A stretch of 64,000 nt of DNA from Cellvibrionaceae bacterium (GTDB lineage Bacteria > Pseudomonadota > Gammaproteobacteria > Pseudomonadales > Cellvibrionaceae). The position numbers and the translations under genes were made by a program. This document shows, piece by piece, positions 22,298-37,503 of the stretch (positions are counted from its first letter, which is position 1; each line of letters opens with the position of its first letter). The stretch covers positions 2,097,874 through 2,161,873 of the forward strand of contig OZ252214.1 of NCBI GenBank assembly GCA_965248935.1. Direction: 5' to 3'. The notes under the pieces were generated by a model, which saw only the letters and a list, made by a program, of their open reading frames with translations, was not told the origin of the DNA and did not search any database.

Positions 22298-23842
22298 TTA
22301 AACAAACTCTATTGGGGGTAAATCTCCTTCATCGTCATCATCAGTATTTTTGATATTGGGTTGCTTAATACTGGACGGCTCAATAGCCTCTTGACTCTTC
22401 GCTGTTAATGCCTGATCGGCTATAGTTTGCCCTGTTAGATTTTCTGACGAAAAGGCCGCCGCACCCTTTGCCTTGGGTTCTTTCTCGGTGGATACAACCT
22501 TTTGCCTCTTCGGCAATTTTTTAACCAGTTTTCGACACTGCTCAGCCTTTTCACCCATATTAGGTAGATCATCTAAAGCCTCTGCCATAAGTTCGTAAGC
22601 ATCACCTAGATGCTCGAACCGAGGGAATTGCTTATGTAAGCCATTAATAAGTTTAATGGTCGATTTAGAATCTCCATTTTCTTTACAGGTTTGCGCAAGG
22701 GTAAACCTTAATTCTGGAGTATTAGGAATATAATCAGGGCAAACTCGCACTATCTGTTTGTATGCTAAATTGAGTTGATCCGTTCGGTTTGAACAAATAA
22801 GATAATCAAGGTAGGCAGACGCAAATTTTTTAAGATGGTTAGCGCTTCTTATTGCTATTAAAAAATCAAAATATTTTGGAATAAATTCCTTTTGTTTTGG
22901 AAAGTGAGTGAAAGCTGTTTTGTACAAACCCAATACCTCACTATACTCCCCCTCTTTAAGTTTAATATCAATGTTAACCATTAGCCTTTCATAAGGTGCG
23001 CGCTTCGTTTCATGTGTATTTTCCACAACCCGAGCAGTGTAGCCAAAAAGTGTCTGATACTGGAATATCATGTAACCCATTAAATGAAAAATAACAACCA
23101 TATAGTAGTTAGAGACTATGGATTGCAAAACTAAAGACAGAAATGAATAGTCGTTAGCAATGACCTCACTAATTAACCCAATAGAGGCCATCATAATCAT
23201 CAAGAATGCCAAAAGTAAACCATAGGGTAAGCCTACTGTTGAAATAAGTCTTATGGTATTTATTGGGTTTAGTGCTTCTACTACATTAGCACTCAATGCG
23301 AAACGAATTAGCATTGCCGGCAACCCTATAATAATCATAAAAGCCAGAAGCCCGGCAACTGTATGACCAAACAGATTATCGGCCCCTACAATTACAGCCC
23401 CCAAAATTCCCATCATCATTATAAGTTGCAAAATCAGCGTTAAACCACCTTCGTAGGCAGTCGTAATACTTGGGGCTATCATCTCCCCTTCAGAGGTTTT
23501 CTCCAAACAACGAAAACAATATTTCAGTAAAACACCCACTAAAATAAGATACCAAAAAAAAGTAAAGGGTACGTATGACAATACTGTAGTGAGGAATGAA
23601 ACACCAATAATCAAAACCAATGCCCCGGTTTTTAAAGGGTAACGAAAACTCTCTTGCAACCGGCGCCAAAAAGGTTCGACATTATTTGCCGTACCTAAAA
23701 ATTCGACCTCTTTTCGACAAACAAAACATTTTTCTGCTGTTTTCTTTTCCCCTTCATCGGTACAGTTATCACAACAATCGGTTTCACAATTGCCGCAATG
23801 GTAAGTAGCAGGTACAAGCGGATGATATTTGCAGTAATCCAT
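22298..23842 (-). CDS. Polytopic membrane protein with an N-terminal Cys-rich zinc-ribbon and a C-terminal alpha-helical (TPR-like) domain.
   Basis: YHCGNCETDCCDNCTD...CFVCRK, about 8 hydrophobic segments, then a soluble helical C-terminus. The start overlaps the rhomboid gene stop by 1 nt. Confidence 0.55.
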   Translation of the reverse strand: MDYCKYHPLVPATYHCGNCETDCCDNCTDEGEKKTAEKCFVCRKEVEFLGTANNVEPFWRRLQESFRYPLKTGALVLIIGVSFLTTVLSYVPFTFFWYLILVGVLLKYCFRCLEKTSEGEMIAPSITTAYEGGLTLILQLIMMMGILGAVIVGADNLFGHTVAGLLAFMIIIGLPAMLIRFALSANVVEALNPINTIRLISTVGLPYGLLLAFLMIMMASIGLISEVIANDYSFLSLVLQSIVSNYYMVVIFHLMGYMIFQYQTLFGYTARVVENTHETKRAPYERLMVNIDIKLKEGEYSEVLGLYKTAFTHFPKQKEFIPKYFDFLIAIRSANHLKKFASAYLDYLICSNRTDQLNLAYKQIVRVCPDYIPNTPELRFTLAQTCKENGDSKSTIKLINGLHKQFPRFEHLGDAYELMAEALDDLPNMGEKAEQCRKLVKKLPKRQKVVSTEKEPKAKGAAAFSSENLTGQTIADQALTAKSQEAIEPSSIKQPNIKNTDDDDEGDLPPIEFV

Positions 23843-25272
23843 TACACTGTCCTCACGGTTAGTTTTTGGGCTAGCTGAGCGTATTCCTGTTGTTTATTCT
23901 CATTGCCTAGGTTGCCATGTAAGATCGACAGTTTATTTGCCAAAAGGCCAAGAGAAGTATTTTGATTATTTTTCTTATAGGCTTGAGCAAATATTTTTTC
24001 AGAAGTATCGATATTGGGTAACGCTGTTAACTTCATACCTAGCTGAGCGAGGCTTTCATCTTCCATAATTTGAACAATACCTGGGTTTTCTGACCAAACT
24101 GATTCAATTTTAGCCAGTTCGTGGGGCATTAAATTATTAATGTTTAGCAATTCAATAATACTCTGCTTATATTCGTTGCCTTTTTTCAGTTTTAATAGGT
24201 TATAGCGGATAATCGCTAGCTCAAATATTAGGCCCTGCTCTTTTACCAGCTCACCTAGGACAGTATAAGCCGATTCAAATCGACAGGATTCAATACAAGC
24301 ATACACTTTTGCTAGCTTTTCTCGGTAAGGATTATAGTCCTGGTCTTCATCAATGTATTCTTGGTTGCGTGCTTTGGGGTCAAGAAAAGTCGAAATAAGC
24401 ATAAGCAGACTACCGGCGATAATACCCCCGGCATGAGCCATAAACGCCACATTAGAGTTGGGTTCACTAACATAACTGTATATTTCCTTGCCTAAATAGA
24501 ATGGCAAAATAAGCAGGGCTGGGGCACGAAAATACCCAACAAATATAAATAACCAGTAAAAAAATTCAATTTTTTTAAGCCTAAAGACTCCGAGGTACAT
24601 AGCCATTACACCGGAAATAGCTCCCGAAGCTCCAATGAGAGACACTGAGCTATTCATATCAAAAAGCATATGAAATACGCCGCCCGCTATTCCGCTCAAC
24701 AAATAAAATAAGAAAAAACGCAAATGACCTATTGCGGCTTCCACAGCAAAGCCACAGATAACAAGAAAAAACAGGTTGCCGACAAGATGCATTAACCCAC
24801 CATGCAAAAATTGGTGGGTAATTAAGGTTATGGGTTCCAAATTATTGGGTACAACACCCAAGGCAGCAGCGCTTGTTGATTGAATTAAATCGTCTATTTC
24901 CTTTCTATCTTCTTGCCAGTTTCTTTTACCGATAAGATTCAGTTGGTCTTTTTTATTTTCTAATAAATAATCATAAAAACCGTCTTTAAATAAAAACTCT
25001 AGTCCAAGTTCTTCATACAATTCGTCTTTATAGAGATACTCATATTCTTGCAACAACTCACCTTCTTCCCTGGAAACCAAATACTCTTTAAAGAACGGCC
25101 ATTCCTTTTTAACAAGTTCGTACTTATTGTAAAGTTCTATGGCTTCTTCGTACTTCTTAGTATCACCGGATTGATATAACAAAAATACCAATATATTGGT
25201 TATTACTATAAAGAAGAGAACAATGGGAGCGTGTTTCCAATCAAAACGCTTTTCGGTGGGTACAATAATCAT
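23842..25272 (-). CDS. Rhomboid-family intramembrane serine protease with a C-terminal TPR-like extension.
   Basis: HQFLHGGLMHLVGN, the catalytic GASGAISGVMAMY (GxSG) and the AHAGGIIAG His motif. 476 aa. Confidence 0.8.
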   Translation of the reverse strand: MIIVPTEKRFDWKHAPIVLFFIVITNILVFLLYQSGDTKKYEEAIELYNKYELVKKEWPFFKEYLVSREEGELLQEYEYLYKDELYEELGLEFLFKDGFYDYLLENKKDQLNLIGKRNWQEDRKEIDDLIQSTSAAALGVVPNNLEPITLITHQFLHGGLMHLVGNLFFLVICGFAVEAAIGHLRFFLFYLLSGIAGGVFHMLFDMNSSVSLIGASGAISGVMAMYLGVFRLKKIEFFYWLFIFVGYFRAPALLILPFYLGKEIYSYVSEPNSNVAFMAHAGGIIAGSLLMLISTFLDPKARNQEYIDEDQDYNPYREKLAKVYACIESCRFESAYTVLGELVKEQGLIFELAIIRYNLLKLKKGNEYKQSIIELLNINNLMPHELAKIESVWSENPGIVQIMEDESLAQLGMKLTALPNIDTSEKIFAQAYKKNNQNTSLGLLANKLSILHGNLGNENKQQEYAQLAQKLTVRTV

Positions 25273-25544: not shown

Positions 25545-28500
25545 TTATTTAATAGGCTTATGCTGAGTCACTTTCACATCAGTTTCTATGCTCTTTAATT
25601 TCTCAAAGACATCTTCTAATTTTTTGTGAGTACGTAAATCAATATTGAGCTTACCTTCCATTGCTCTCACAAGTGGGAAGATGGATGTTTCCAGAGTATC
25701 AGCGATAGTTTTTAATAACAGGTCTATCCCTGGCACAGGTTGGTTGACCACTTCCACTTGGTATTTAGCACCCGCTAAGGTTTTACTAATGGAATCCAGA
25801 GAGCCCAATAAAAGTTTTAGCTGCTCGCCATATTGGCTCCCCTGCTTAAGGGTGCGATTAATCACGGCAAGCTGTCTGGCTGTCATATCTTTAGCGTCTT
25901 TTTCTCCTAAGTTATTCGCACTATCAATAATTGCAGTGGAGATATTTTCCATATGACTGGTAAGTTCAGCTAATTGATTGGCAACCTTGGTACCCGAATC
26001 TGCATTTGCTCCACCCATGATACGATTTTTATTGAATTCTTTTTTGATATTTTCCCAGCGGACACTTTCTTCTTTCGTCAAAACGCCTCGGAGTTCTTTG
26101 AGTTTAAGCAGGTTCTCTTCTGCGCCGGTAGTTAATAATTGTGCTTCGCCAAGGTAATGGTCATTAATAACTTGCTGTAGCTCCTCTTCATTCATCACCG
26201 CAGAAACTTTTTCTGCCATTTTGTTCATATTGCGGTAACTACCTTGCAACTTAAATGAAGGTTCAGTTCGATAAATATCATCCTGTGCAGCAGACGCAAT
26301 ATATTGCTGGTTTACACTCAGTATCACGTCTCGAATTTTAAATAATTTTTGTAGCACGGACGTTATTTCATTCACTTCCGCAGCAGAGTAGTTGTGGGAT
26401 AAATCCGTAGTAGCTACCTCTAGCCCACGCGCTTTGTCCACAAGCTTATACACATCCGACATTTCCCGTGTCGCCATTGGGGCTAAAATAGGGTTGGATG
26501 TCAGTGTATTTTCCAGATAGCTCAATGCGAATACGTCATCCATTCCGCCCAATACGTCACCCAGGTTATAAATATCCGCACGGTTCGCCAGCATATCTGG
26601 GATTTTGAACATCTCACCGGATTCGGTGTAAGGGTTACCGGCCATAATCACGCAGAATTTACGGCCACGCATATCGTAAGTTTTTGTCTCACCTTTCCAT
26701 ATTCCCTCAATACGACGAGTACCATCACATAGCGAAATAAATTTTTGCAGAAATTCGGGGTTTGTATGTTGAATATCATCGAGATAGAGCATCACATTGC
26801 TGCCCATTTCTAAACCTAAATTTAGCTTTTCCAGTTCCTGCTTTGCGGTCGCATTGGGTGCTTGCTCAGGGTCCAGCGAATCCACTTCATGGCCTAGTGA
26901 TGGGCAGTTGATTTTCATAAAAATCAAACCCAATCGGCTGGCAACGTATTCCATTAATGTTGTTTTACCGTAACCAGGCGGCGAGATCATCATCAACAGC
27001 CCCATAAGATCCGTTCGCTTTTTGTCACCGAGGGTACCCATTTGCTTAGCGAGGTTGTCACCAATAATAGGGAGGTATGATTCGTTAATTAATTTATTTC
27101 GTACAAACGAACTTAAGGGTTTAGGCTTAAATTCATCCAGGCGAACAGACTTACGCTGCTCGTCTATCACTTGCTGACGAACATCGAGAAAATTAAAATA
27201 TTCAGGTATCAATACTTGCTGATGGTGTTTGAGTCTTGCTAAAAATTCATCGACAGCAATATCCAATTGTTGATTTTTTAATCGGCTATGTTGCCCCATT
27301 AAACCATTAACAGTAAAGTTTAGGTCTACCTCAGTATGACGGCGGCTTATTCGCTCCTCTGCATTCACAATAGCAATAGCTTCCGGTATATAGTGCGATA
27401 GCAATTCGTGATTGGAATTGTCCACCAATGCCTTGATCCAGGCGTGCGTCAATTGCCAGCGCTTCCCTGCCTGACCTTTAAGTTCCTTCAAGGCTGTTTG
27501 AAAGCCACGCCAAGCACCGGCAACATCCATTTCTTGCTTAAGCTTTTTCGCAAGATCACTCGCATATTTACTGGTGATAAATTCCAGTCGCTCTCTACTC
27601 AATTCGTAAACTAAATATTCCGCCGCGAGTAAATTTATTGCGGTACTGATTTCTACATTCAGGTCTTGAAGCTGAACATATTCCACTAATGCTTTATCTA
27701 CATCGCCAATAAGAAGTTTAAGTGCATCGGAACTAGCAAATGTTTTGTACATTTGGAGTGCAGACTGCGCTCTCACCGTCCATGTTTGTTGCTCCGATTC
27801 GCGTTGTGTATTTGCCCAGAAAATAGTCGCTAATGCGCGTGCATCTGGCGCAAACCTTAATAAATCACAACTTTCTAAGATAGGGAGTAGGGATTGTAGA
27901 ATAACGGCTGCGTCGTGATCGTGAATGCCTTTTTCGTAGCCTTCCTTGTACTTGGGCGTTGCATAAGCACGAATAACTTTTACTAGAGCTTCTTTTTGAG
28001 GGAGAAGTTCGCTTAGTTTTTCAATACTAAGATCGTTCTCTTTCGCCAACGCATCTTGGTAAATGCTATAAGCGAGGTATTCCGCACGATATACTTGATC
28101 ATTTTCTGAAGGGAGGCTCTGCTCCCAGTACTTTGCCAATTCCGTGAGCTTAGGGTGAGTCGCGGTTTCAAAAAAATCCGTTCCCGTTAAATGAAAACAC
28201 AATTTACCATTTCTAGGAATAATAGTAAGGTCCAGCTCTTGGGTATTCACACTGAACTTATGGCGTGGCCCCATTTTAATAACGTTGCCGCCATCTTCAT
28301 AAATATCCGCTTTATCGCGTAACGCTCGAACGGCTTGGTCCTTCGCCGCTTTTAAACGTGCATCAATATCGTCCGCTTTTACAGAGCTATCAAGATTGTG
28401 AAGGTTCTGAACCAACTCTCTACTTTTTAAAACCAACGAATCAGACGCGAAGTAGGTATTGAGTTCATCCACCGAGCTGAACTTCTTGATTCGACGGTTT

Positions 28501-30875
28501 ATATTTTCAATTATGCGTTCCGCTGCGTCTGCAATAGACTGAGCGCGACGTTGTTGTTCGTCTAACAATTGCTGCTTACGATTTTCGAAACTTTCGTAAA
28601 CTTCTTCTCGTTTGGCTACAATGTCGTTAAAAAAGTCGTCAAAGCCACTAAACTGACTTTCTAGCTCTTCCAGTTGTACCAATAAACGAGACATGTGCTC
28701 GTCGCATTTTGCCGGAGTGGAAGCCAAGCTTAGTGCATTGGATATACTCTGAGAGAACAACTTAAATTGAGCCGCAAACTGGGCAACCGCTTCACCCTGT
28801 CCTAGTTGTTTCTCTCTATTTTTCGCTTTAGCTCGTGTTTGGTTAAGCTTTGCGTAAACATCGGATATCGCGTCAATAATGGCCGTTCGTACAGTCGCAT
28901 CCGCCACTTGAAGCGTTGTCATCATTTCAGACAGTAGATCCAAGCCGCCAGCCAGTTTTTCTATCGCCTCTAGAGTAGGAGTAAGTTCGACTATTGTTGC
29001 CGCCGTCTCAATAACTTTTTCCAGTTCAATAAGTTCTTCTGAATAGGGTGCAAGCGCTGTATCTCTCGATAGAAATAATACTGTTTCTTTACCAAGCTTT
29101 TCTTGAGCTTCATTAATTTGTTCTTCGAGGATAGCAATTTTGTTTACATCTATATAACGATATTCCTTCAACGTCATTAAATGACCAAACTGATGCCTTA
29201 AACCATCCAACGCTTCAACGAACTCGCCCGGTGTTTGCCATCTATCAGGATGTATGGAGTCCAGTAATTTCTGCTGTTCCTTTTCTGTTTCTCTTAAAGC
29301 CTCTACTGAGTTCTTTCGAATACTTTCAACTTTTTCAAATTCGTCAAGAATAAGATCCGATGTATCAATTATTTCTTTTAAATCGTCATTAATACTTTGC
29401 GTTTCTGTTGATTCGATCCAGTGATAGGCATCATAAATTCTGCGCGTCGATTTTTGTAAGTCTTCATATAAATACGCAGACGGACTTTGATCATTGATCG
29501 CTCGACAAATACTATAGAGGTCAGAAATACCCCGAACTAATTCCGCATTGCCTATTTTTCCAAAAAAGGACTGGCTGCTAGGTGCGGCGGCGGCAAACTC
29601 TTCCGAGACGTACGGAGTCTGCCACACTTGCATAGGATGTACACGGGTAGGGTCTTCGCCTTCAGCATGGAATATAACCGATTCCCCATCGTCAAAAATG
29701 GTGTAACCGTGGCAATAAATTGGGTTTTGAAGTTGCTTAGTAATTAAGTTATAGGCGAATAGAGCAAAAATACCCTCTTTTTGTTCATAGAAAACATAGA
29801 GTACATCCTCTCCATTTGGAGACTTGATACATCGTTTGAAACGAAGACCTTTTAGGTCATCATCAAACCGCTTTTGTTCACCATTTTGTAAATAGTAACC
29901 ACCGGGAAATATTAATCCATGATTTTCAGGTAATTGTATGCACGATTCCCCTATTGCATCAATTCGATCAACCTGTTGATTGGTTGAATTAAATATAAGG
30001 TAGCGGTATTTTTCTTCTCTATAGGGTTTTATTTTTAATAAAACTAATTCACCCACTTCGGCGAAAAATATATCAGCGTCATCCAACGATTGGGTCTTAT
30101 CTTCAACAGTCTCGCTGTAAATGCCTCGTCCATCTTCAGTATTGTCTTCAACTTTAATGGTTAAATCACCATTTACGGTCTCAACAAAGACTTTATCCTG
30201 AATATTAAAATGTGGATGTTTACCATGCACACTGTATTCACGAGTTACCTCTCGCCATTCAAAATCATATTTGGGAGGCAACGCAATATCACGCTCGCCT
30301 CGGTTATCCATATAGGTAACCGATGTTTGGTCCGCAGAAATACTCCAACGAAATACACGTATATCAGAAACCTTCTCCCCTATTTGAAAAGCCGCCAGAA
30401 GTTTCTGATTTTTTACAACAATTTGAACTAGGCTTGCGTGTTTATAATAAGCGTATAATTCACCGAACTCTTTGCTAAATTGTGGGTCGGCTAAAAAGCT
30501 ATCCGTCATTGACTGAGGCGTCATTTCGAAATTATCGCCATTTTTCTCTAACGTATAGAGGGCGAAAACATCTTCGATTTTGGTTTCTTTTTTTAGGCCG
30601 AGAAAAACATTGTAGCCAAATACAAGCTGACGACCAACCTGAACAATATCACGCGCGGTACAGTTATTTTCTGTACGAACTCGGACACGTCCAACAACCG
30701 ACATATCTGTACTGCCAAATTCATCCGTCCGCGCTTGATTTAAGGTGCGCGCATTCACTTCTAAGCTTTTCCCTTGTTCCACCAAGCGCTTACGTATTAA
30801 TTCGTAAGCTCCACCTTCCGCAACCGCTTGGTTTATAGTACTCGCATTATTTTCATCAACGTTTTTATCAGCCAC
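25545..30875 (-). CDS. Giant (1776 aa) multidomain protein with a beta-rich N-terminal region, long coiled-coil/helical middle and one AAA+ ATPase domain of the AAA_5 (MoxR/McrB/dynein-like) type, encoded at about 26450-27010.
   Basis: Walker A MISPPGYGKTTL, Walker B VMLYLDDIQHTNPEFLQKFISLCD (compare DEINRAxPEVLNxLLxLLE) and a sensor-like CVIMAGNPY (compare ATMNP). It is co-directional with and 119 bp downstream of the flotillin gene. Confidence 0.7.
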   Translation of the reverse strand: MADKNVDENNASTINQAVAEGGAYELIRKRLVEQGKSLEVNARTLNQARTDEFGSTDMSVVGRVRVRTENNCTARDIVQVGRQLVFGYNVFLGLKKETKIEDVFALYTLEKNGDNFEMTPQSMTDSFLADPQFSKEFGELYAYYKHASLVQIVVKNQKLLAAFQIGEKVSDIRVFRWSISADQTSVTYMDNRGERDIALPPKYDFEWREVTREYSVHGKHPHFNIQDKVFVETVNGDLTIKVEDNTEDGRGIYSETVEDKTQSLDDADIFFAEVGELVLLKIKPYREEKYRYLIFNSTNQQVDRIDAIGESCIQLPENHGLIFPGGYYLQNGEQKRFDDDLKGLRFKRCIKSPNGEDVLYVFYEQKEGIFALFAYNLITKQLQNPIYCHGYTIFDDGESVIFHAEGEDPTRVHPMQVWQTPYVSEEFAAAAPSSQSFFGKIGNAELVRGISDLYSICRAINDQSPSAYLYEDLQKSTRRIYDAYHWIESTETQSINDDLKEIIDTSDLILDEFEKVESIRKNSVEALRETEKEQQKLLDSIHPDRWQTPGEFVEALDGLRHQFGHLMTLKEYRYIDVNKIAILEEQINEAQEKLGKETVLFLSRDTALAPYSEELIELEKVIETAATIVELTPTLEAIEKLAGGLDLLSEMMTTLQVADATVRTAIIDAISDVYAKLNQTRAKAKNREKQLGQGEAVAQFAAQFKLFSQSISNALSLASTPAKCDEHMSRLLVQLEELESQFSGFDDFFNDIVAKREEVYESFENRKQQLLDEQQRRAQSIADAAERIIENINRRIKKFSSVDELNTYFASDSLVLKSRELVQNLHNLDSSVKADDIDARLKAAKDQAVRALRDKADIYEDGGNVIKMGPRHKFSVNTQELDLTIIPRNGKLCFHLTGTDFFETATHPKLTELAKYWEQSLPSENDQVYRAEYLAYSIYQDALAKENDLSIEKLSELLPQKEALVKVIRAYATPKYKEGYEKGIHDHDAAVILQSLLPILESCDLLRFAPDARALATIFWANTQRESEQQTWTVRAQSALQMYKTFASSDALKLLIGDVDKALVEYVQLQDLNVEISTAINLLAAEYLVYELSRERLEFITSKYASDLAKKLKQEMDVAGAWRGFQTALKELKGQAGKRWQLTHAWIKALVDNSNHELLSHYIPEAIAIVNAEERISRRHTEVDLNFTVNGLMGQHSRLKNQQLDIAVDEFLARLKHHQQVLIPEYFNFLDVRQQVIDEQRKSVRLDEFKPKPLSSFVRNKLINESYLPIIGDNLAKQMGTLGDKKRTDLMGLLMMISPPGYGKTTLMEYVASRLGLIFMKINCPSLGHEVDSLDPEQAPNATAKQELEKLNLGLEMGSNVMLYLDDIQHTNPEFLQKFISLCDGTRRIEGIWKGETKTYDMRGRKFCVIMAGNPYTESGEMFKIPDMLANRADIYNLGDVLGGMDDVFALSYLENTLTSNPILAPMATREMSDVYKLVDKARGLEVATTDLSHNYSAAEVNEITSVLQKLFKIRDVILSVNQQYIASAAQDDIYRTEPSFKLQGSYRNMNKMAEKVSAVMNEEELQQVINDHYLGEAQLLTTGAEENLLKLKELRGVLTKEESVRWENIKKEFNKNRIMGGANADSGTKVANQLAELTSHMENISTAIIDSANNLGEKDAKDMTARQLAVINRTLKQGSQYGEQLKLLLGSLDSISKTLAGAKYQVEVVNQPVPGIDLLLKTIADTLETSIFPLVRAMEGKLNIDLRTHKKLEDVFEKLKSIETDVKVTQHKPIK

Positions 30876-30994: not shown

Positions 30995-33016
30995 CTATTC
31001 GCCCGTTTTACCCGTGATGGTTTCCACCACTTTTCCGGCACTTTTGCCCAAAAGATTGGTAAGTAAATCCTGTACGGCTGGTGTTTCCTTCATAAAGGCT
31101 TCCACAGATTTACCCGCTGACAGCGATTTAGTAATGGTTTTAAGGAAATCACCGTCACCCCCAACAATATCGATATTCGCCTGTTTAAGCGCTTCTGCCA
31201 TAACTTGCGCTTGGTCGTTGGCAATCTCTTTATTTGCGGTAATGGCGGCCATGGCCTCTTCGAAGTTTTTCTCTAGCTCCATACGGAATTCTTCGTGCTC
31301 TCTAGACTGTTCAGTCATTGTATTGAGTGCATTAAATTTCTCAATCAAACCATGCGCTTCGTTAACAAATTTCGCTTTGGTCACGTCCGCATCAGCCATA
31401 CCTTTTTCACGATCCGCTTTTGCAACAGCAAGGCCCATTTGCTCTTCACCGGACGCCTCAGCACCCAATTTCTCTTCCATAACTTTTGCTTCTGCCAAAC
31501 CTTCTTTCTCTAGGGCAACAGCATGAGCTTCTTGACCTTTCGCTTCAGCGACCATTTTTTCTTCGATGACTTTTGCTTCGGCGATACCTTCTTTTTCCAT
31601 TGCGTCCGCTTTTGCTTCTTGTACTTGTGCGTCCGCTAAACCTGGTGCTGCTGTAGTAGCTTGTACACCCTCAGCAATTTTCTTCTCAGCTTCTGCCTGT
31701 TTAGCCGCCGCTTCCAACTCCGCTTGCGCGATGGTATTAATTTCTTTCGCTTTAAAGGTCGCTTTGGTCGCTTCCGCTTCCGAAGCTTTAACTTCTTTTA
31801 CCAAATCTTCTTCTGCGGCGGCATGAGCGGCGATAACGATGGCTTGCTTATTTCGGTCTGCTTCAGATACCACTCGTACTTCTTTAATTTTCTCTTCTTC
31901 TTGCGCCACGGTTTTCTCAACGGCAATTCGCTCACGAATCACATTGGCGATTTCACGTTTTTCATGTTCAAGTGCTTTTTCTTTCTCAATGGTCTGTAAC
32001 TCAACCTCACGCTCACGCGAAACAACTTCCAATTCCTGAGCGCGAGTAACTTTTTCGACTTCGATCACCACTGCGCGTTGTCGATTCTGCTCAGCGACTT
32101 CAATTTCACGTTGAACATTTTCATTTTGCACCGAAATTTCTTGATCGGCCACTAAGCGCGCCTGCTCAGATTTTTGGCGCTCTTCCTCTTGAACTTTTTT
32201 GGTTTCCGCTTCTTCACGCGCTTGAACACTTAGAACTTCACGCTGCTGCCTTGCAATTGCGTCTTTTTCTTGCAGTTCAAGCGATAGCATGGCTTCTTTT
32301 GTTTCAACATTCTTTTTCTTAATCGCCAGCTCTTCGTTTCGCTCTAACTCGTTGGTAACAACATTTTGTTCTGCGGTTAGCTGAGTAATCTTGCGAATAC
32401 CTTCAGAGTCCATAATATTGGATTCATCTAGGCTTTTCTTTGGCGTCTGCTCTAGATAATCAATAGCGACATCCTCTAAAGCGTAACCGTTCAAATCATC
32501 GCCAATAACTTCGACAATTTTCTCCCTAAACATAATTCTATTTTCAAATAAATCGGTAAATTCCATTTGTTTACCTACAGTTTTTAACGCTTCCGAAAAT
32601 TTTGCATTAAATAGTTCGTTTACTGCGGATTTGTCTGATGCACGATCTACGCTAATTGCCTTTGCGACACGTAATACATCTTCACGTGTTTCATTTACAC
32701 GAAGGTAGAAAGCAACGTTTATATCCGCACGAATATTATCTTTACAAATAAGACCATCACTTCCGCGCCTATCCACTTCCATGGTAATAAGAGAAATTTT
32801 CATTTCCTCTTTTTTGTGTATCACTGGGATAACAAAGGCACCTGTAAAACTCACCCTTGGTGTAGGGCCTAAGTCATTGACAATTAGCGCTGTGCCCTGC
32901 GGGACTTTGGTATAAAACGCCTTGAAAAAAATCGCTAACATTAGGATAAGGCCAACAAGACCACCTATAGCGATGAATACTCCGGCAAAAATTGATACAT
33001 CTGGCATAACAATCAC
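30995..33016 (-). CDS. Flotillin-like SPFH/band-7 protein (E. coli YqiK type) with a long Ala/Glu-rich coiled-coil C-terminus.
   Basis: An N-terminal TM segment, then an SPFH domain (..ALIVNDLGPTPRVSFTGAFVIPVIHK..), then repeated EAKxxEEK coiled-coil. 673 aa. Confidence 0.85.
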   Translation of the reverse strand: MIVMPDVSIFAGVFIAIGGLVGLILMLAIFFKAFYTKVPQGTALIVNDLGPTPRVSFTGAFVIPVIHKKEEMKISLITMEVDRRGSDGLICKDNIRADINVAFYLRVNETREDVLRVAKAISVDRASDKSAVNELFNAKFSEALKTVGKQMEFTDLFENRIMFREKIVEVIGDDLNGYALEDVAIDYLEQTPKKSLDESNIMDSEGIRKITQLTAEQNVVTNELERNEELAIKKKNVETKEAMLSLELQEKDAIARQQREVLSVQAREEAETKKVQEEERQKSEQARLVADQEISVQNENVQREIEVAEQNRQRAVVIEVEKVTRAQELEVVSREREVELQTIEKEKALEHEKREIANVIRERIAVEKTVAQEEEKIKEVRVVSEADRNKQAIVIAAHAAAEEDLVKEVKASEAEATKATFKAKEINTIAQAELEAAAKQAEAEKKIAEGVQATTAAPGLADAQVQEAKADAMEKEGIAEAKVIEEKMVAEAKGQEAHAVALEKEGLAEAKVMEEKLGAEASGEEQMGLAVAKADREKGMADADVTKAKFVNEAHGLIEKFNALNTMTEQSREHEEFRMELEKNFEEAMAAITANKEIANDQAQVMAEALKQANIDIVGGDGDFLKTITKSLSAGKSVEAFMKETPAVQDLLTNLLGKSAGKVVETITGKTGE

Positions 33017-33033: not shown

Positions 33034-33711
33034 CTAATTTTTGAATTTATTTTCTGGAACTACTTGGTAGGTCCCTTTATTTCGGTCGTATTCGATAGGA
33101 ACGACGCGGTCCCCCTTTTTGAGTTCGTTTGGTTCATCTGCCCAAATTCTCAATAGCAAATCTGCGCCCATATCGTTCATCATTGCTTCGCCGAACGATG
33201 ATGTTACTTTGCTAGAACGAATAACAGCCACTTGCCCTAGCACGGTTTTTTCAACTGTTTTTCCCACTTTTTTGAAAAGCGGTCTTAAGGGTTTTATTAG
33301 GGCTGCCGTTACTTTTACGGCAATAAAGAATGAGCCAATAACCGTTCCAGTTCCCGCTAAGAAGGATAACGGACCTGATGGTACAAAATCGAAAAGGAAG
33401 AAAACAGTGTAGTAACAGATAATCCACGCCACAATGCTTAACAACGTTAGCATAATTGTTATGGGCACACCGATAAGCCCCCAACTTATTAGAAAGCCCG
33501 CCACGGCTTCTGCTGTTGCATTGTCCATATTCAAATCAACGTCAGCATCACCGTCGAAATCCAAGTCAAGATCAAAGATATCTAGGTCTAACATCCCCAG
33601 CACAGTAAACAGCCAGAGTACAACCATTACTCCCATAAAAACGGTAAAAATGGCGGTCGGAAATGAAAACGTGATCTTAAAAAATTCTTCAAACATAAGT
33701 GCAAACACCAT
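33034..33711 (-). CDS. YqiJ-like inner-membrane protein (DUF1449, NfeD-like short form). It is the first gene of the operon.
   Basis: 225 aa. Several TM helices plus a C-terminal soluble beta domain. The yqiJ-yqiK (flotillin) pairing is classical. Confidence 0.6.
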   Translation of the reverse strand: MVFALMFEEFFKITFSFPTAIFTVFMGVMVVLWLFTVLGMLDLDIFDLDLDFDGDADVDLNMDNATAEAVAGFLISWGLIGVPITIMLTLLSIVAWIICYYTVFFLFDFVPSGPLSFLAGTGTVIGSFFIAVKVTAALIKPLRPLFKKVGKTVEKTVLGQVAVIRSSKVTSSFGEAMMNDMGADLLLRIWADEPNELKKGDRVVPIEYDRNKGTYQVVPENKFKN

Positions 33712-33777
33712 TTTGGGTATTCCCTATTGCTCTATATTGTTAGTTAGCCAGCTATTGAGACCATATCAAAGAAGACG

Positions 33778-33963
33778 GACATAATATGTCGCATAAGACA
33801 TATTATGTCAACACTGTTAGGGGAAGAGTCATGTATTTCTCTAAATATCCATTATTAAAAATTGGCGATGCCCTTTTTAAACGTCCACACACAAAAATAC
33901 AAGAAAATTATTGTTGACATATTATGTCACGAGGATACACTAACTCCATCGACATAATATGTC
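33778..33963. promoter_or_regulatory. Divergent promoter region carrying four copies of the perfect 13-bp palindrome GACATA-N-TATGTC, at 33778-33790, 33797-33809, 33916-33928 and 33951-33963. The two inner copies each embed an outward-facing TTGACA -35 hexamer.
   Basis: Read directly. The sites are arranged symmetrically (outer copies with central A, inner copies with central T) between the yqiJ-like start (33711, minus) and the yjfI-like start (34007, plus). TTGACATATTATGTC and TTGACATAATATGTC give -35 boxes. Candidate -10s lie 17-19 bp away and run into the outer sites. Confidence 0.6.
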
Positions 33964-34006
33964 GCCAAAGGTGCCGACCAATAGGCACTCTATAAAGGGC
34001 CAATAG

Positions 34007-34414
34007 ATGACTCAATTACAGGAACTAATACAGCAGTTAAGTGATGCAAGCTACCAGGGGCATAGCTTCAATTGTCTGCCTATACCGGGTGAGCAAGAGG
34101 TTTTGCAGGTAACGGTTTCCGGTCAGGACGAGATACCTATCTACGTTACTGTGACGGAAACCCAGATTCTTTGCATCGTATACCTGTTTAGGGAGAGTGA
34201 GGTCAGAGATGACGCTTTTAACGAACTGAATGAACGATGTTTGCAAGTGAATGTGCCTATGCCGCTGTCGGCCTACGCCAAAATAGATGATCAATATGCG
34301 CTTTTCGGTGCCTTGTCGATCAATTCACTGTTCAACAATATTATGAAAGAAATAGTGACCTTAAGTGATAACTCAGTAGTCGCACTTGAAGTTGTTGAAG
34401 ACCTTCTGAAATAG
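34007..34414 (+). CDS. YjfI-like (DUF2170) protein, the conserved partner upstream of the PspA-family gene.
   Basis: 135 aa, 30-nt gap to the PspA-like gene. The E. coli yjfI-yjfJ arrangement is recalled from memory. Confidence 0.45.
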   Translation: MTQLQELIQQLSDASYQGHSFNCLPIPGEQEVLQVTVSGQDEIPIYVTVTETQILCIVYLFRESEVRDDAFNELNERCLQVNVPMPLSAYAKIDDQYALFGALSINSLFNNIMKEIVTLSDNSVVALEVVEDLLK

Positions 34415-35131: not shown

Positions 35132-35382
35132 TCAAAGCTTTGTAAGATATTAAGGAAAATGGAAAAACAGTGGGTAAGGGATACCCTATGGCGCTGGCAT
35201 CGAAGCCAGCATAAGGACAATCGCTGGAAGCGATATTGACAAGGAATTTGTATAGGAACTGTTTTTCTAAAGGAGCAAAAACGCAAGGGATTGCTGAATA
35301 GGAAGTTCAAACAAAGCTTTTAACGGCTTAGGTATCCCATAGCCTAAGCCATTTCTCCCACGAAGTTTATCTCCGTGGGATT

Positions 35383-35727: not shown

Positions 35728-36222
35728 ACCCTATGAAATGCACAGCTTGCTCACCAGCTTAATAGTGTCTTTACCAACGCTTGGCAAGCAGGTTTACGCG
35801 CAAAACACAGCGAACAAGTATTTGAGGCAATGTATACAAAAGATTTTGGCGAGGAAGCCTATACAAAGATTAAAGAATTTAAACAGTGGTTGGATAAGCA
35901 AGACGCTATCGATTTAACGTCTCCATTTATTCAAACTCAAACACTGAGGATTTTAGACTGTTTTTATAGAGCCACACCACAGACAGGTGCCTAAGAAAGG
36001 AACTAAACCTTAGCATTTTGTTAGGCTTAGAAGCTGGTCGAACTATTGAGCCAAATACGATGCTGAGAGATGCCAATTCGCCTCGCCAAGATAATTTTTA
36101 TGATGCCAATCTGTGGGATTTTTTGGATCAAAGTGACTCTTTAGTTGCGTTGCTTTTAAACTTTGCCATCGCTGAAACTCAACTGATTATATTGGTGTCC
36201 GCTAAGGGTCACTTGCCCCTGT

Positions 36223-36500
36223 TTATGAAAACAACTCCGAATGGCTACCTGTTCGCACAAGATCAATTACTTTTTCCTCTTCATTAACCCGATAAATTAA
36301 GAGCCAGTCGGGTTCGATATGGCACTCCCAATGCCCAACATAATTACCTGTAAGATTATGATCTCGATTGCTTACTGGCAGTGCTTCACCCGAGGTTAAA
36401 AGCTCCAATATGATATGGAGCTTTTGCACATTTTTACTTTGACGCTTGCACTTCTTGAGAGGTCACGTTTAAATTTATTAGATGCGAATAATTCGTACAT
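36223..36500 (-). pseudogene. yafQ: YafQ-like (RelE/ParE-fold) toxin gene with a frameshift in codons 14-16.
   Basis: ATG 36500 overlaps the dinJ stop (TAATG). It encodes MYELFASNKFKRDL.., then must shift frame near CTCTC (36455-36461) to join ..KKCKRQSKNVQKLHIILELL...HWECHIEPDWLLIYRV...RTGSHSELFS. The tracked ORF is the 68-aa GTG-started piece. Confidence 0.65.
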
Positions 36501-36763
36501 TAGATATCTAAGTCTTTAAACATGGCATCTGCATCCTTATATCGTGTACCTTGTCCGTTCTCGATCTCTTTCATAGCTTCTAATGTTTCAACATTAGGCA
36601 CTTTTGCTTTTGGCTGGAAAGGCAAGCCCCCTATATTTACGGATTGTTGCAGAAACAGGCGGATTGCATCGGATGTTTTTAACCCCATAGAGGCAAACAC
36701 AGCCTCTGCCTGAGCCTTTAACTCTGCTGAAACACGCGCTTGAACTGTATCGTTAGTAGCCAT
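36500..36763 (-). CDS. dinJ: DinJ/RelB-family antitoxin.
   Basis: MATNDTVQARVSAELKAQAEAVFASMGLKTSDAIRLFL...LPF matches DinJ (MAANAFVRARIDEDLKNQAADVLAGMGLTISD..). Confidence 0.8.
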   Translation of the reverse strand: MATNDTVQARVSAELKAQAEAVFASMGLKTSDAIRLFLQQSVNIGGLPFQPKAKVPNVETLEAMKEIENGQGTRYKDADAMFKDLDI

Positions 36764-36868
36764 ATCAAAACCTCTGCGTACTTATCATTACTACAACACC
36801 TACAAAGATAACCAACGATAACCAAGACATCCATACCAACCCCTTCGCACAACGCATAAAACGTTAGT

Positions 36869-37138
36869 CTAGTGCTGGTCGTAATGGCCACCTATAGCGA
36901 AGATGTAGATATAGTTATCATCAAATTTATAGATTACGCGGTCTTTTTGACTCAATCTTCGGGACCAAAGGCCAGAAAGATTATGCTTTAGTGGCTCGGG
37001 TTTTCCTGTTCCGTGAGCGGGGTCATCACGCATCATTTCTTTGAGTTGTCGGCATAAAACCTTATGTAGCTTTTTATCTTTCTCACGTAATTTCTCATAT
37101 TCTTGCCAAGTACTTCCTTCAAAGACCAGTGATCTCAC
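36869..37138 (-). CDS. yoeB: YoeB/Txe-family toxin (mRNA interferase).
   Basis: ...HGTGKPEPLKHNLSGLWSRRLSQKDRVIYKF... matches the YoeB core almost exactly. Confidence 0.85.
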   Translation of the reverse strand: MRSLVFEGSTWQEYEKLREKDKKLHKVLCRQLKEMMRDDPAHGTGKPEPLKHNLSGLWSRRLSQKDRVIYKFDDNYIYIFAIGGHYDQH

Positions 37139-37391
37139 TCATCTCCTCCTTGCCTGGCTTATATCCACCTTTCTGAGTATGCGTACCTAAAGAATCAGAG
37201 ATTTGTTGCATTAAGCTATTGTTTTGCAAGACATGAAGGGTTTCTTGCTCACGTTCCCAGTCATCGGCACTAATAACAACAAAATCTTCACCACTACGTC
37301 TAGTTACTTTAAGAGGAGTGTGGTTTCCAACTATTTGTTCTACAAAGCTTTTTAGGTTGTCTCTAAATTTATTAACACTTACGCTGTCCAT
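37119..37391 (-). CDS. yefM: YefM/Phd-family antitoxin. Start taken at the MDSVSVNKFRDNL Met; the tracked ORF extends to 37469.
   Basis: Phd/YefM N-terminus (..VSVNKFRDNLKSFVEQIVGNHTPLKVTRRSGEDFVVISADDWE..). It overlaps yoeB by 20 nt. Confidence 0.8.
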   Translation of the reverse strand: MDSVSVNKFRDNLKSFVEQIVGNHTPLKVTRRSGEDFVVISADDWEREQETLHVLQNNSLMQQISDSLGTHTQKGGYKPGKEEMSEITGL

Positions 37392-37503
37392 AAATCCACC
37401 TTGAGTTAGTGTACGGTATTTCCGTACATTATAGGGCGCAAGCCTTAACAAGTGCAAGCAGCAGCGCACACACTGTGTGGCTGGACAGCCATTACGCTGC
37501 GCT

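Follow-up and report, generated by a model that had tools for sequence, protein, structure and literature searches.

Ribbon-helix-helix (RHH) autorepressors such as Arc and Mnt of phage P22, CopG, MetJ and the RHH antitoxins are proteins of ~50-110 aa encoded in the operon that they control, and their operators are short, repeated or palindromic, present in multiple copies and placed over the -35 and -10 elements of a strong sigma-70 promoter, implying cooperative higher-order binding. YjfI-PspA (YjfJ) and flotillin/YqiJ/AAA+ modules are widespread and poorly understood envelope-maintenance systems, and we know of nothing that explains how they are switched on outside the PspF paradigm. The related bac cluster of Pseudomonas aeruginosa affects biofilm formation and virulence; it consists of bacABCDEF (PA3732-PA3727), six genes in one operon with a proposed sigma-54 promoter, and BacA has been proposed as a negative regulator that acts via protein contacts (PMC2587700, PMC10948618). 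The operon is under negative control, as BacB-F are upregulated 6- to 13-fold in a bacA mutant (PMC10948618). Ravi et al. (2024) described a CesT/Tir(DUF2170)-PspA neighborhood with a TM-band-7-flotillin, a novel AAA+ ATPase and a YqiJ/YuaF-like protein, and reported that the Shewanella-type operon ends with a gene for an RHH transcription factor, the neighborhood of SO_3766 in Shewanella oneidensis being lipoprotein, YjfL-TM, spermine synthase, CesT/Tir-DUF2170, PspA, DUF4178 and RHH (PMC11237479). In the accessible parts of its text and supplement, that study gives no operator, promoter anatomy or regulon, and the RHH gene comes up in the spermine-synthase class alone and not in the flotillin class to which the window locus belongs (PMC11237479). 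Full-text literature searches with the motif string described below or with the Shewanella locus tags SO_3765-3768 returned nothing relevant, and combinations of PspA, flotillin, RHH and operator returned nothing relevant except Ravi et al.

Here, we analyzed a 64-kb stretch of DNA (the window) in which four palindromes lie between a flotillin operon and a yjfI-pspA operon. The palindromes are deeply conserved, putative repressor-binding sites covering two back-to-back promoters, and comparison of sequences across species indicates that they are probably the operators of P107, a putative, operon-encoded RHH repressor that would govern both divergent operons. The flanking features are as follows:

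23842-25272, minus strand: rhomboid-family protease (Pfam), possibly the last member of the leftward operon
25545-30875, minus strand: DUF3686/DUF7902/AAA+ ATPase of 1776 aa (Pfam), third gene of the leftward operon
30995-33016, minus strand: flotillin (YqiK-like, SPFH/band-7) of 673 aa, E=4e-40 to E. coli YqiK
33034-33711, minus strand: yqiJ/NfeD-like membrane protein of 225 aa, first gene of the leftward operon, named from a weak match to E. coli YqiJ (E=0.004) and from its position (PMC11237479)
34007-34414, plus strand: yjfI-like gene (DUF2170, CesT/Tir-like chaperone fold family; PF09938, 6e-37; PMC11237479)
34445-35131, plus strand: pspA/IM30-family gene (YjfJ-like; PF04012, 1e-33)
35358-35381, plus strand: stem-loop CCCACG...CGTGGG followed by a U-rich tail, shortly before the P107 start codon
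35404-35727, plus strand: P107, 107 aa, candidate regulator, predicted (tandem) RHH, third gene of the right-hand operon
35733-35901, plus strand: remnant of a Zn-ribbon (PF13453) gene 3' of P107, with an internal deletion and a frameshift

The flotillin and YqiJ-like proteins were identified by pairwise comparison with E. coli YqiK and YqiJ, as a Pfam hmmscan of the two window proteins returned no family even at E<=10; the homologue of the flotillin in Pseudoalteromonas luteoviolacea (L010; 47% identical) carries a precomputed PF01145 (Band_7) match, and the place of the yqiJ-like gene beside the flotillin gene is conserved in relatives. A sequence-only reading of this DNA had labeled the two flanks as a flotillin operon and a yjfI/pspA-like operon, and given the YqiK match, the weak YqiJ likeness and the DUF2170 and PspA/IM30 matches, these labels hold. 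The yjfI-like protein also gives a partial match to the NCBIfam model of BacA, and rhomboid genes recur beside motif-controlled operons in other loci (L003, L008 and L085). The gene neighborhood is exactly the one described by Ravi et al. (PMC11237479).

The palindrome, GACATANTATGTC, occurs exactly four times in the window, with A, T, T and A as central bases from left to right, just as the sequence-only reading had located and described the copies. The sites and the predicted promoters around them are:

33778-33790, strand not applicable: O_L2 (outer left), GACATAATATGTC, overlapping the leftward -10
33783-33811, minus strand: P_left, predicted sigma-70 promoter of the yqiJ-like/flotillin/AAA+ operon, with TTGACA (33811-33806), a 17-nt spacer and the -10 CATATT (33788-33783)
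33797-33809, strand not applicable: O_L1 (inner left), GACATATTATGTC, embedding the -35 of P_left
33914-33941, plus strand: P_right, predicted sigma-70 promoter of the yjfI-pspA-P107 operon, with TTGACA (33914-33919), a 16-nt spacer and the -10 TACACT (33936-33941)
33916-33928, strand not applicable: O_R1 (inner right), GACATATTATGTC, embedding the -35 of P_right
33951-33963, strand not applicable: O_R2 (outer right), GACATAATATGTC, downstream of the -10 TACACT

All four lie within a 295-bp gap separating two divergent genes. No match was found in 100 dinucleotide-preserving shuffles, and at up to 3 mismatches the window holds 19 extra matches where 22.6 are expected, which is chance level; the sole 2-mismatch match (10697) falls within an ORF. 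The palindrome therefore occurs far above chance and only at specific promoters. The sites had also been described as mirror-symmetric about the intergenic midpoint, which is true of their central bases (A,T/T,A) only, as the centre-to-centre spacing is 19 bp in the left pair and 35 bp in the right pair.

In a consensus scan, P_left and P_right each match 10 of the 12 sigma-70 consensus positions; both are consensus predictions, and the transcription starts used here are predicted rather than mapped ones. Each inner palindrome starts two bases inside its TTGACA, and the outward-facing hexamer that had been seen in each inner copy is present on both sides. The outer copies had been assigned to the -10 and start of each promoter: the left one does contain the -10, while on the right the -10 lies between the two sites and the outer copy covers the start region, as O_R2 begins 10 bp past TACACT and would thus span ~+3 to +15 of the yjfI transcript. 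No sigma-54 -24/-12 element was found in 33711-34007 at up to 3 mismatches, and we rejected a sigma-54 promoter for that reason; a MerR-type spacer site was also rejected, as the spacers are 16-17 nt and not 19.

At each promoter, then, one operator would lie over the -35 and a second over the -10 (left) or the transcription start (right), a position from which a bound repressor would exclude RNA polymerase by steric hindrance. The sequence-only reading had left open whether a dimeric repressor or an activator serves both operons; the footprints conserved at both sigma-70-type promoters support operators shared by the two, and the position of the sites argues for a repressor. Site position by itself is no proof of regulatory sign, and the -10 elements (TACACT and CATATT) are imperfect, as would be expected if P107 or another factor acted here as an activator, but we consider this very unlikely: the sites cover a perfect TTGACA -35 plus the -10/+1, where RNA polymerase must bind, whereas activator sites are normally upstream of or adjacent to the -35, and the known control of the related bac operon is negative, via a different protein (PMC10948618).

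To follow the sites beyond the window, orthologous loci of ~20 kb were fetched via YjfI homologues. L001, L003 (Agaribacterium sp. ZY112), L011 and L012 (YjfI identity 87% and 78%) retain exact copies of all four sites. The left pair is spaced by 19 bp and the right pair by 35 bp (34 bp in L003), which is the same as in the window or within 1 bp, and the intergenic sequence around the sites has diverged. Four sites remain even at a YjfI identity of 52-53%, in a Pseudomonadales MAG (L008), where each has one mismatch, and in a member of the Ketobacteraceae (L026), where the core is exact and the central bases vary; the changes in both are confined to the central three bases. O_L2 is conserved in L001, L003, L011/L012 and L134, with 1 mismatch in L008 and as an exact-core variant in L026, and the architecture of P_left is repeated in orthologous loci. 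The palindromes are thus kept in orthologous intergenic regions from 87% to 52% YjfI identity while the flanks diverge, a comparison that had been proposed as a check on the sites. Other loci have a different gene arrangement: in L006 the yjfI operon lies after secG, away from the flotillin genes, and two exact sites still precede yjfI, and in L010, where all genes share one orientation, a single exact site embeds TTGACA upstream of yjfI. Across these arrangements, the sites thus accompany the yjfI promoter, and also the flotillin promoter where it is divergent. Except for one each in L006 and L010, no extra motif-like sites (<=2 mismatches) were found in the ~20-kb orthologous loci.

A scan of one genome for each of 185,579 species with the pattern GACATNNNATGTC-N(4-30)-GACATNNNATGTC returned at least 120 loci with a site pair. 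In roughly half of the matches listed (tblastn), the pair immediately precedes yjfI-pspA, and the locus also has P107 wherever it reaches far enough. The taxa include Shewanella, Colwellia, Thalassotalea, Pseudoalteromonas, Kangiella, Moritella, Catenovulum, Endozoicomonas and Methylomarinum among the Gammaproteobacteria and Duganella and Pseudoduganella among the betaproteobacteria, with YjfI identity across the scan down to 36%. The other matches listed, mostly from candidate-phyla-radiation bacteria (Patescibacteria) and Saprospiraceae, typically have G+C-rich centres such as CCG/CGG and are unrelated. The 13-mer stands at the same position in more than 100 distinct yjfI-pspA promoters of Gamma- and Betaproteobacteria. 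Positions 6 and 8, which the search pattern left free, are 94% A and 94% T among 197 sites from 110 distinct promoters, with A or T at the centre, so that the consensus is the full 13-bp palindrome GACATAWTATGTC; in this set the footprint is conserved while its flanks diverge. The order of elements is kept as well, with TTGACAT within O1 (in nearly all of ~60 aligned promoters), a -10-like hexamer 16-17 nt on, O2, a Shine-Dalgarno sequence and ATG, giving the sites a fixed register to the predicted -35, -10 and +1. The O1-O2 spacing has its mode at 34-36 bp across lineages and ranges from 17 to 39.

The two left sites (33778-33809) are exact reverse complements of each other, central base included, and form an inverted repeat with 13-bp arms and a 6-nt loop. 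Among 93 pairs from distinct promoters, opposite centres (ATT/AAT or AAT/ATT) were counted in 52 and the same centre in 26, kinship being ignored.

We also considered whether the palindromes could be a nucleic-acid structure (hairpin, cruciform or terminator), a REP-like or mobile repeat, or chance matches, a reading that the 13-bp-stem hairpin of the left pair, terminator-like in a simple scan, would favor. Given the predicted promoters, that hairpin lies upstream of the transcript start, and the spacing of paired sites varies while the 13-mers stay exact, which fits protein sites and not a conserved stem-loop. A dispersed, REP-like motif, the outcome that the sequence-only reading had named as fatal to its case, is not what we found: there are no further copies in the 64 kb, many dispersed copies are absent from the ~20-kb orthologous loci and the species-scan loci as well, and the copies in other genomes stand at orthologous promoter positions. 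We rejected the REP and terminator readings on these distribution data, and regard the whole group as extremely improbable.

No regulator gene had been obvious next to the sites in the sequence-only reading; a conserved gene that co-occurs with the motif, wherever the flanks recovered are long enough, is nevertheless present, and the missing regulator is most likely its product, the small RHH-like protein P107, whose gene lies 1.4 kb from the sites within the right-hand operon. In all orthologous loci that reach past pspA, a gene of 103-118 aa comes next, either directly or after a DUF4178 gene, and the family is small, with 193 clusters (50% identity) in a set of 1.84 billion representatives. 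In the Shewanella loci analyzed here (L072), gene order is as in Ravi et al., with P107 last, at the RHH position. The best fold matches of P107 are single-chain double RHH DNA binders, which is moderate evidence, and the protein has two segments of alternating polar and hydrophobic residues, KATQIAFD and R60-x-R62-L-T-I-S-L, each followed by two helices, the latter segment being invariant. The predictions suggest that a single P107 chain contains two strand-helix-helix units, as TraY and AvtR do. Other searches gave no such indication: there was no Pfam or NCBIfam match (for Pfam RHH models even at E<=10), no PDB match by sequence or by profile, nothing significant in Foldseek against the PDB, zero strands in the predicted monomer model, and no significant hhalign score between the two halves as a sign of internal duplication, the halves being aligned out of register.

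In a metagenome sample seeded by P107 alignment only, independently of the motif, all P107 matches with enough flank adjoin pspA and yjfI. Distinct promoters for which 160 bp or more of sequence upstream of yjfI was available number 46; of these, 33 have at least two exact core sites, 9 have a single one (most of these with near-sites in addition) and 4 have 1-mismatch sites only. P107 and the motif are also both present in two further distant loci (YjfI identity 39% and 47%). Neither P107 nor a site at <=1 mismatch was found in E. coli yjfIJKLMC, the Enterobacter yjfI operon or E. coli yqiJK, although these negative controls are few, come from one order (Enterobacterales) and are the weakest part of the argument. 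Part of this co-occurrence also follows from the way in which the loci were collected, many of them via the motif or P107 itself. A sub-family of P107 (L151, L159, L171, L179 and L214) has RLRLSISL instead of RPRLTISL and tends to have operators 17-18 bp apart, often three per promoter, and G[ACT]CAT half-site variants, G[CT]CAT in some members; we did not count this as protein-DNA covariation, as L214 combines the RLRLSISL strand with canonical sites.

The motif also marks promoters outside the two window operons. In Shewanella kaireitica (L072:945-957), a single extra GACATATTATGTC lies ~3.9 kb upstream of the pair and overlaps the -35 of a separate lipoprotein/DUF350/spermine-synthase operon, and a site is found equally far upstream in many other Shewanella and Colwellia loci. 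Motif pairs whose 8-kb loci contain no P107 precede pspA-rhomboid in Aliikangiella (L085:1486-1528), a membrane protein of ~97 aa whose tail is Cys-rich and Zn-ribbon-like in Motilimonas (L073:1902-1938 and L095:5446-5496) and another gene, for a 264-aa protein, in Shewanella electrica (L021:2062-2096). These are possible remote regulon members, for which the factor must also act in trans. The predicted regulon thus comprises the yjfI-pspA and flotillin operons, both with sites in the window lineage, the DUF350/spermine-synthase operon of Shewanella, and elsewhere rhomboid and small Zn-ribbon genes (Aliikangiella and Motilimonas).

These pairs require a trans-acting factor in any case, and together with the perfect 13-bp palindrome, typical of symmetric HTH dimers, and the weak best Foldseek matches of P107, which are not RHH, they leave room for another transcription factor encoded elsewhere, such as an HTH dimer, with P107 as a co-regulated passenger. 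We judge this unlikely, since the only constant companions of the motif are YjfI, PspA and P107, among which P107 alone has a likeness to DNA-binding proteins; no other regulator gene is conserved beside the sites across their varied contexts, and the motif is absent where P107 is absent, in the enterobacterial yjfI and yqiJK loci.

The 270-bp gap between pspA and P107 contains the stem-loop at 35358-35381, so that co-transcription of P107 is not certain. The stem is kept by compensatory changes in the window, L001 (~11370), L003 (~11190) and L011 (~11150), the versions in the four lineages being CCCACG/CGTGGG, CCCACGG/CCGTGGG, CCCGC/GCGGG and CCCGCAT/ATGCGGG. It was not called by a simple terminator scan; it is a candidate partial terminator or attenuator and may hold the dose of the regulator below that of PspA. 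Downstream of P107, residues 1-7 and 109-163 of the Zn-ribbon remnant are still detectable, and close relatives carry the gene at this position. At 36200-37500, the window has small toxin-antitoxin-like genes where relatives carry other genes, including a Phd/YefM antitoxin (37119-37469, minus strand) with an adjoining small ORF, which suggests a local insertion or replacement beside the operon; the syntenic block resumes near 38.1-38.4 kb.

Proteins of 350-620 aa (P0146, P0153 and others) fuse an N-terminal DUF4178 (YjfK-like) domain, through a long Pro/Ala-rich linker, to a C-terminal P107-like domain. These fusions link DUF4178 to the regulator family, and a DUF4178 gene directly precedes P107 in Shewanella operons.

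In the mechanism that we propose with P107 as repressor, the rightward promoter would drive yjfI-pspA-P107 and the leftward one yqiJ-like/flotillin/AAA+, possibly with the rhomboid gene, and P107 would bind the sites and by binding repress both. As the repressor gene is inside one target operon, this would amount to negative autoregulation and would coordinate the PspA and flotillin modules. The conserved outer pentamers of each palindrome have their centres 8 bp apart, suggesting two RHH modules per palindrome, possibly two pseudo-dimeric monomers, and the presence of two palindromes per promoter suggests cooperative binding. Repression would presumably be relieved by an envelope or membrane signal, perhaps via a protein partner such as the CesT-like YjfI or a DUF4178 protein, at which the DUF4178/P107-like fusions and, by analogy, the negative role of BacA in P. 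aeruginosa hint.

With an operator defined, a repressor proposed and a regulon predicted, these modules become directly accessible to experiment, as deletion of the repressor or mutation of the sites should force the system on, after which the inducer could be found with a reporter. The shared control also ties PspA to flotillin functionally, whatever the gene order. More broadly, and only tentatively, P107 and GACATAWTATGTC could represent an unrecognized sigma-70/RHH circuit for PspA-flotillin membrane-repair modules, an alternative to PspF-sigma54 that is widespread in marine Gamma- and Betaproteobacteria and is released by partner switching through YjfI or the DUF4178 protein.

The gene neighborhood and the RHH gene (PMC11237479) and the bac cluster (PMC2587700, PMC10948618) are already described, and the proposed mechanism is of the classical RHH autorepressor kind, while the operator, promoter design and regulon appear undescribed. 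The bac operon shares at least the YjfI/DUF2170 (BacA) and PspA-like (BacB) genes with the window locus, which differs from it in having sigma-70-type promoters, palindromic operators, no sigma-54 element and a small candidate DNA-binding protein. With the classical Psp response (pspF/sigma-54/pspABCDE), the locus shares a PspA-family effector that is tightly held off and presumably induced by membrane stress; it does not belong to that PspF-sigma54 class, as it has no -24/-12 promoter and no PspF enhancer-binding protein, PspB or PspC was found among the ORFs at 24-44 kb. Classical Psp control is anti-activation, whereas steric repression of sigma-70 promoters is proposed here. Like the RHH autorepressors, the P107 system has a small protein encoded in the operon that it would control and multiple operators over the promoter, and the met-box spacing of MetJ resembles the ~8 bp between half-site centres. 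To our knowledge, the operator GACATAWTATGTC matches no RHH operator, and P107 differs from these repressors in matching no Pfam RHH model. Single-chain tandem RHH proteins are represented by TraY of the F plasmid and AvtR of an archaeal lipothrixvirus, and P107 is apparently built likewise. Its predicted targets are membrane-stress genes, in contrast to the plasmid, phage, toxin-antitoxin or methionine genes that RHH autorepressors control.
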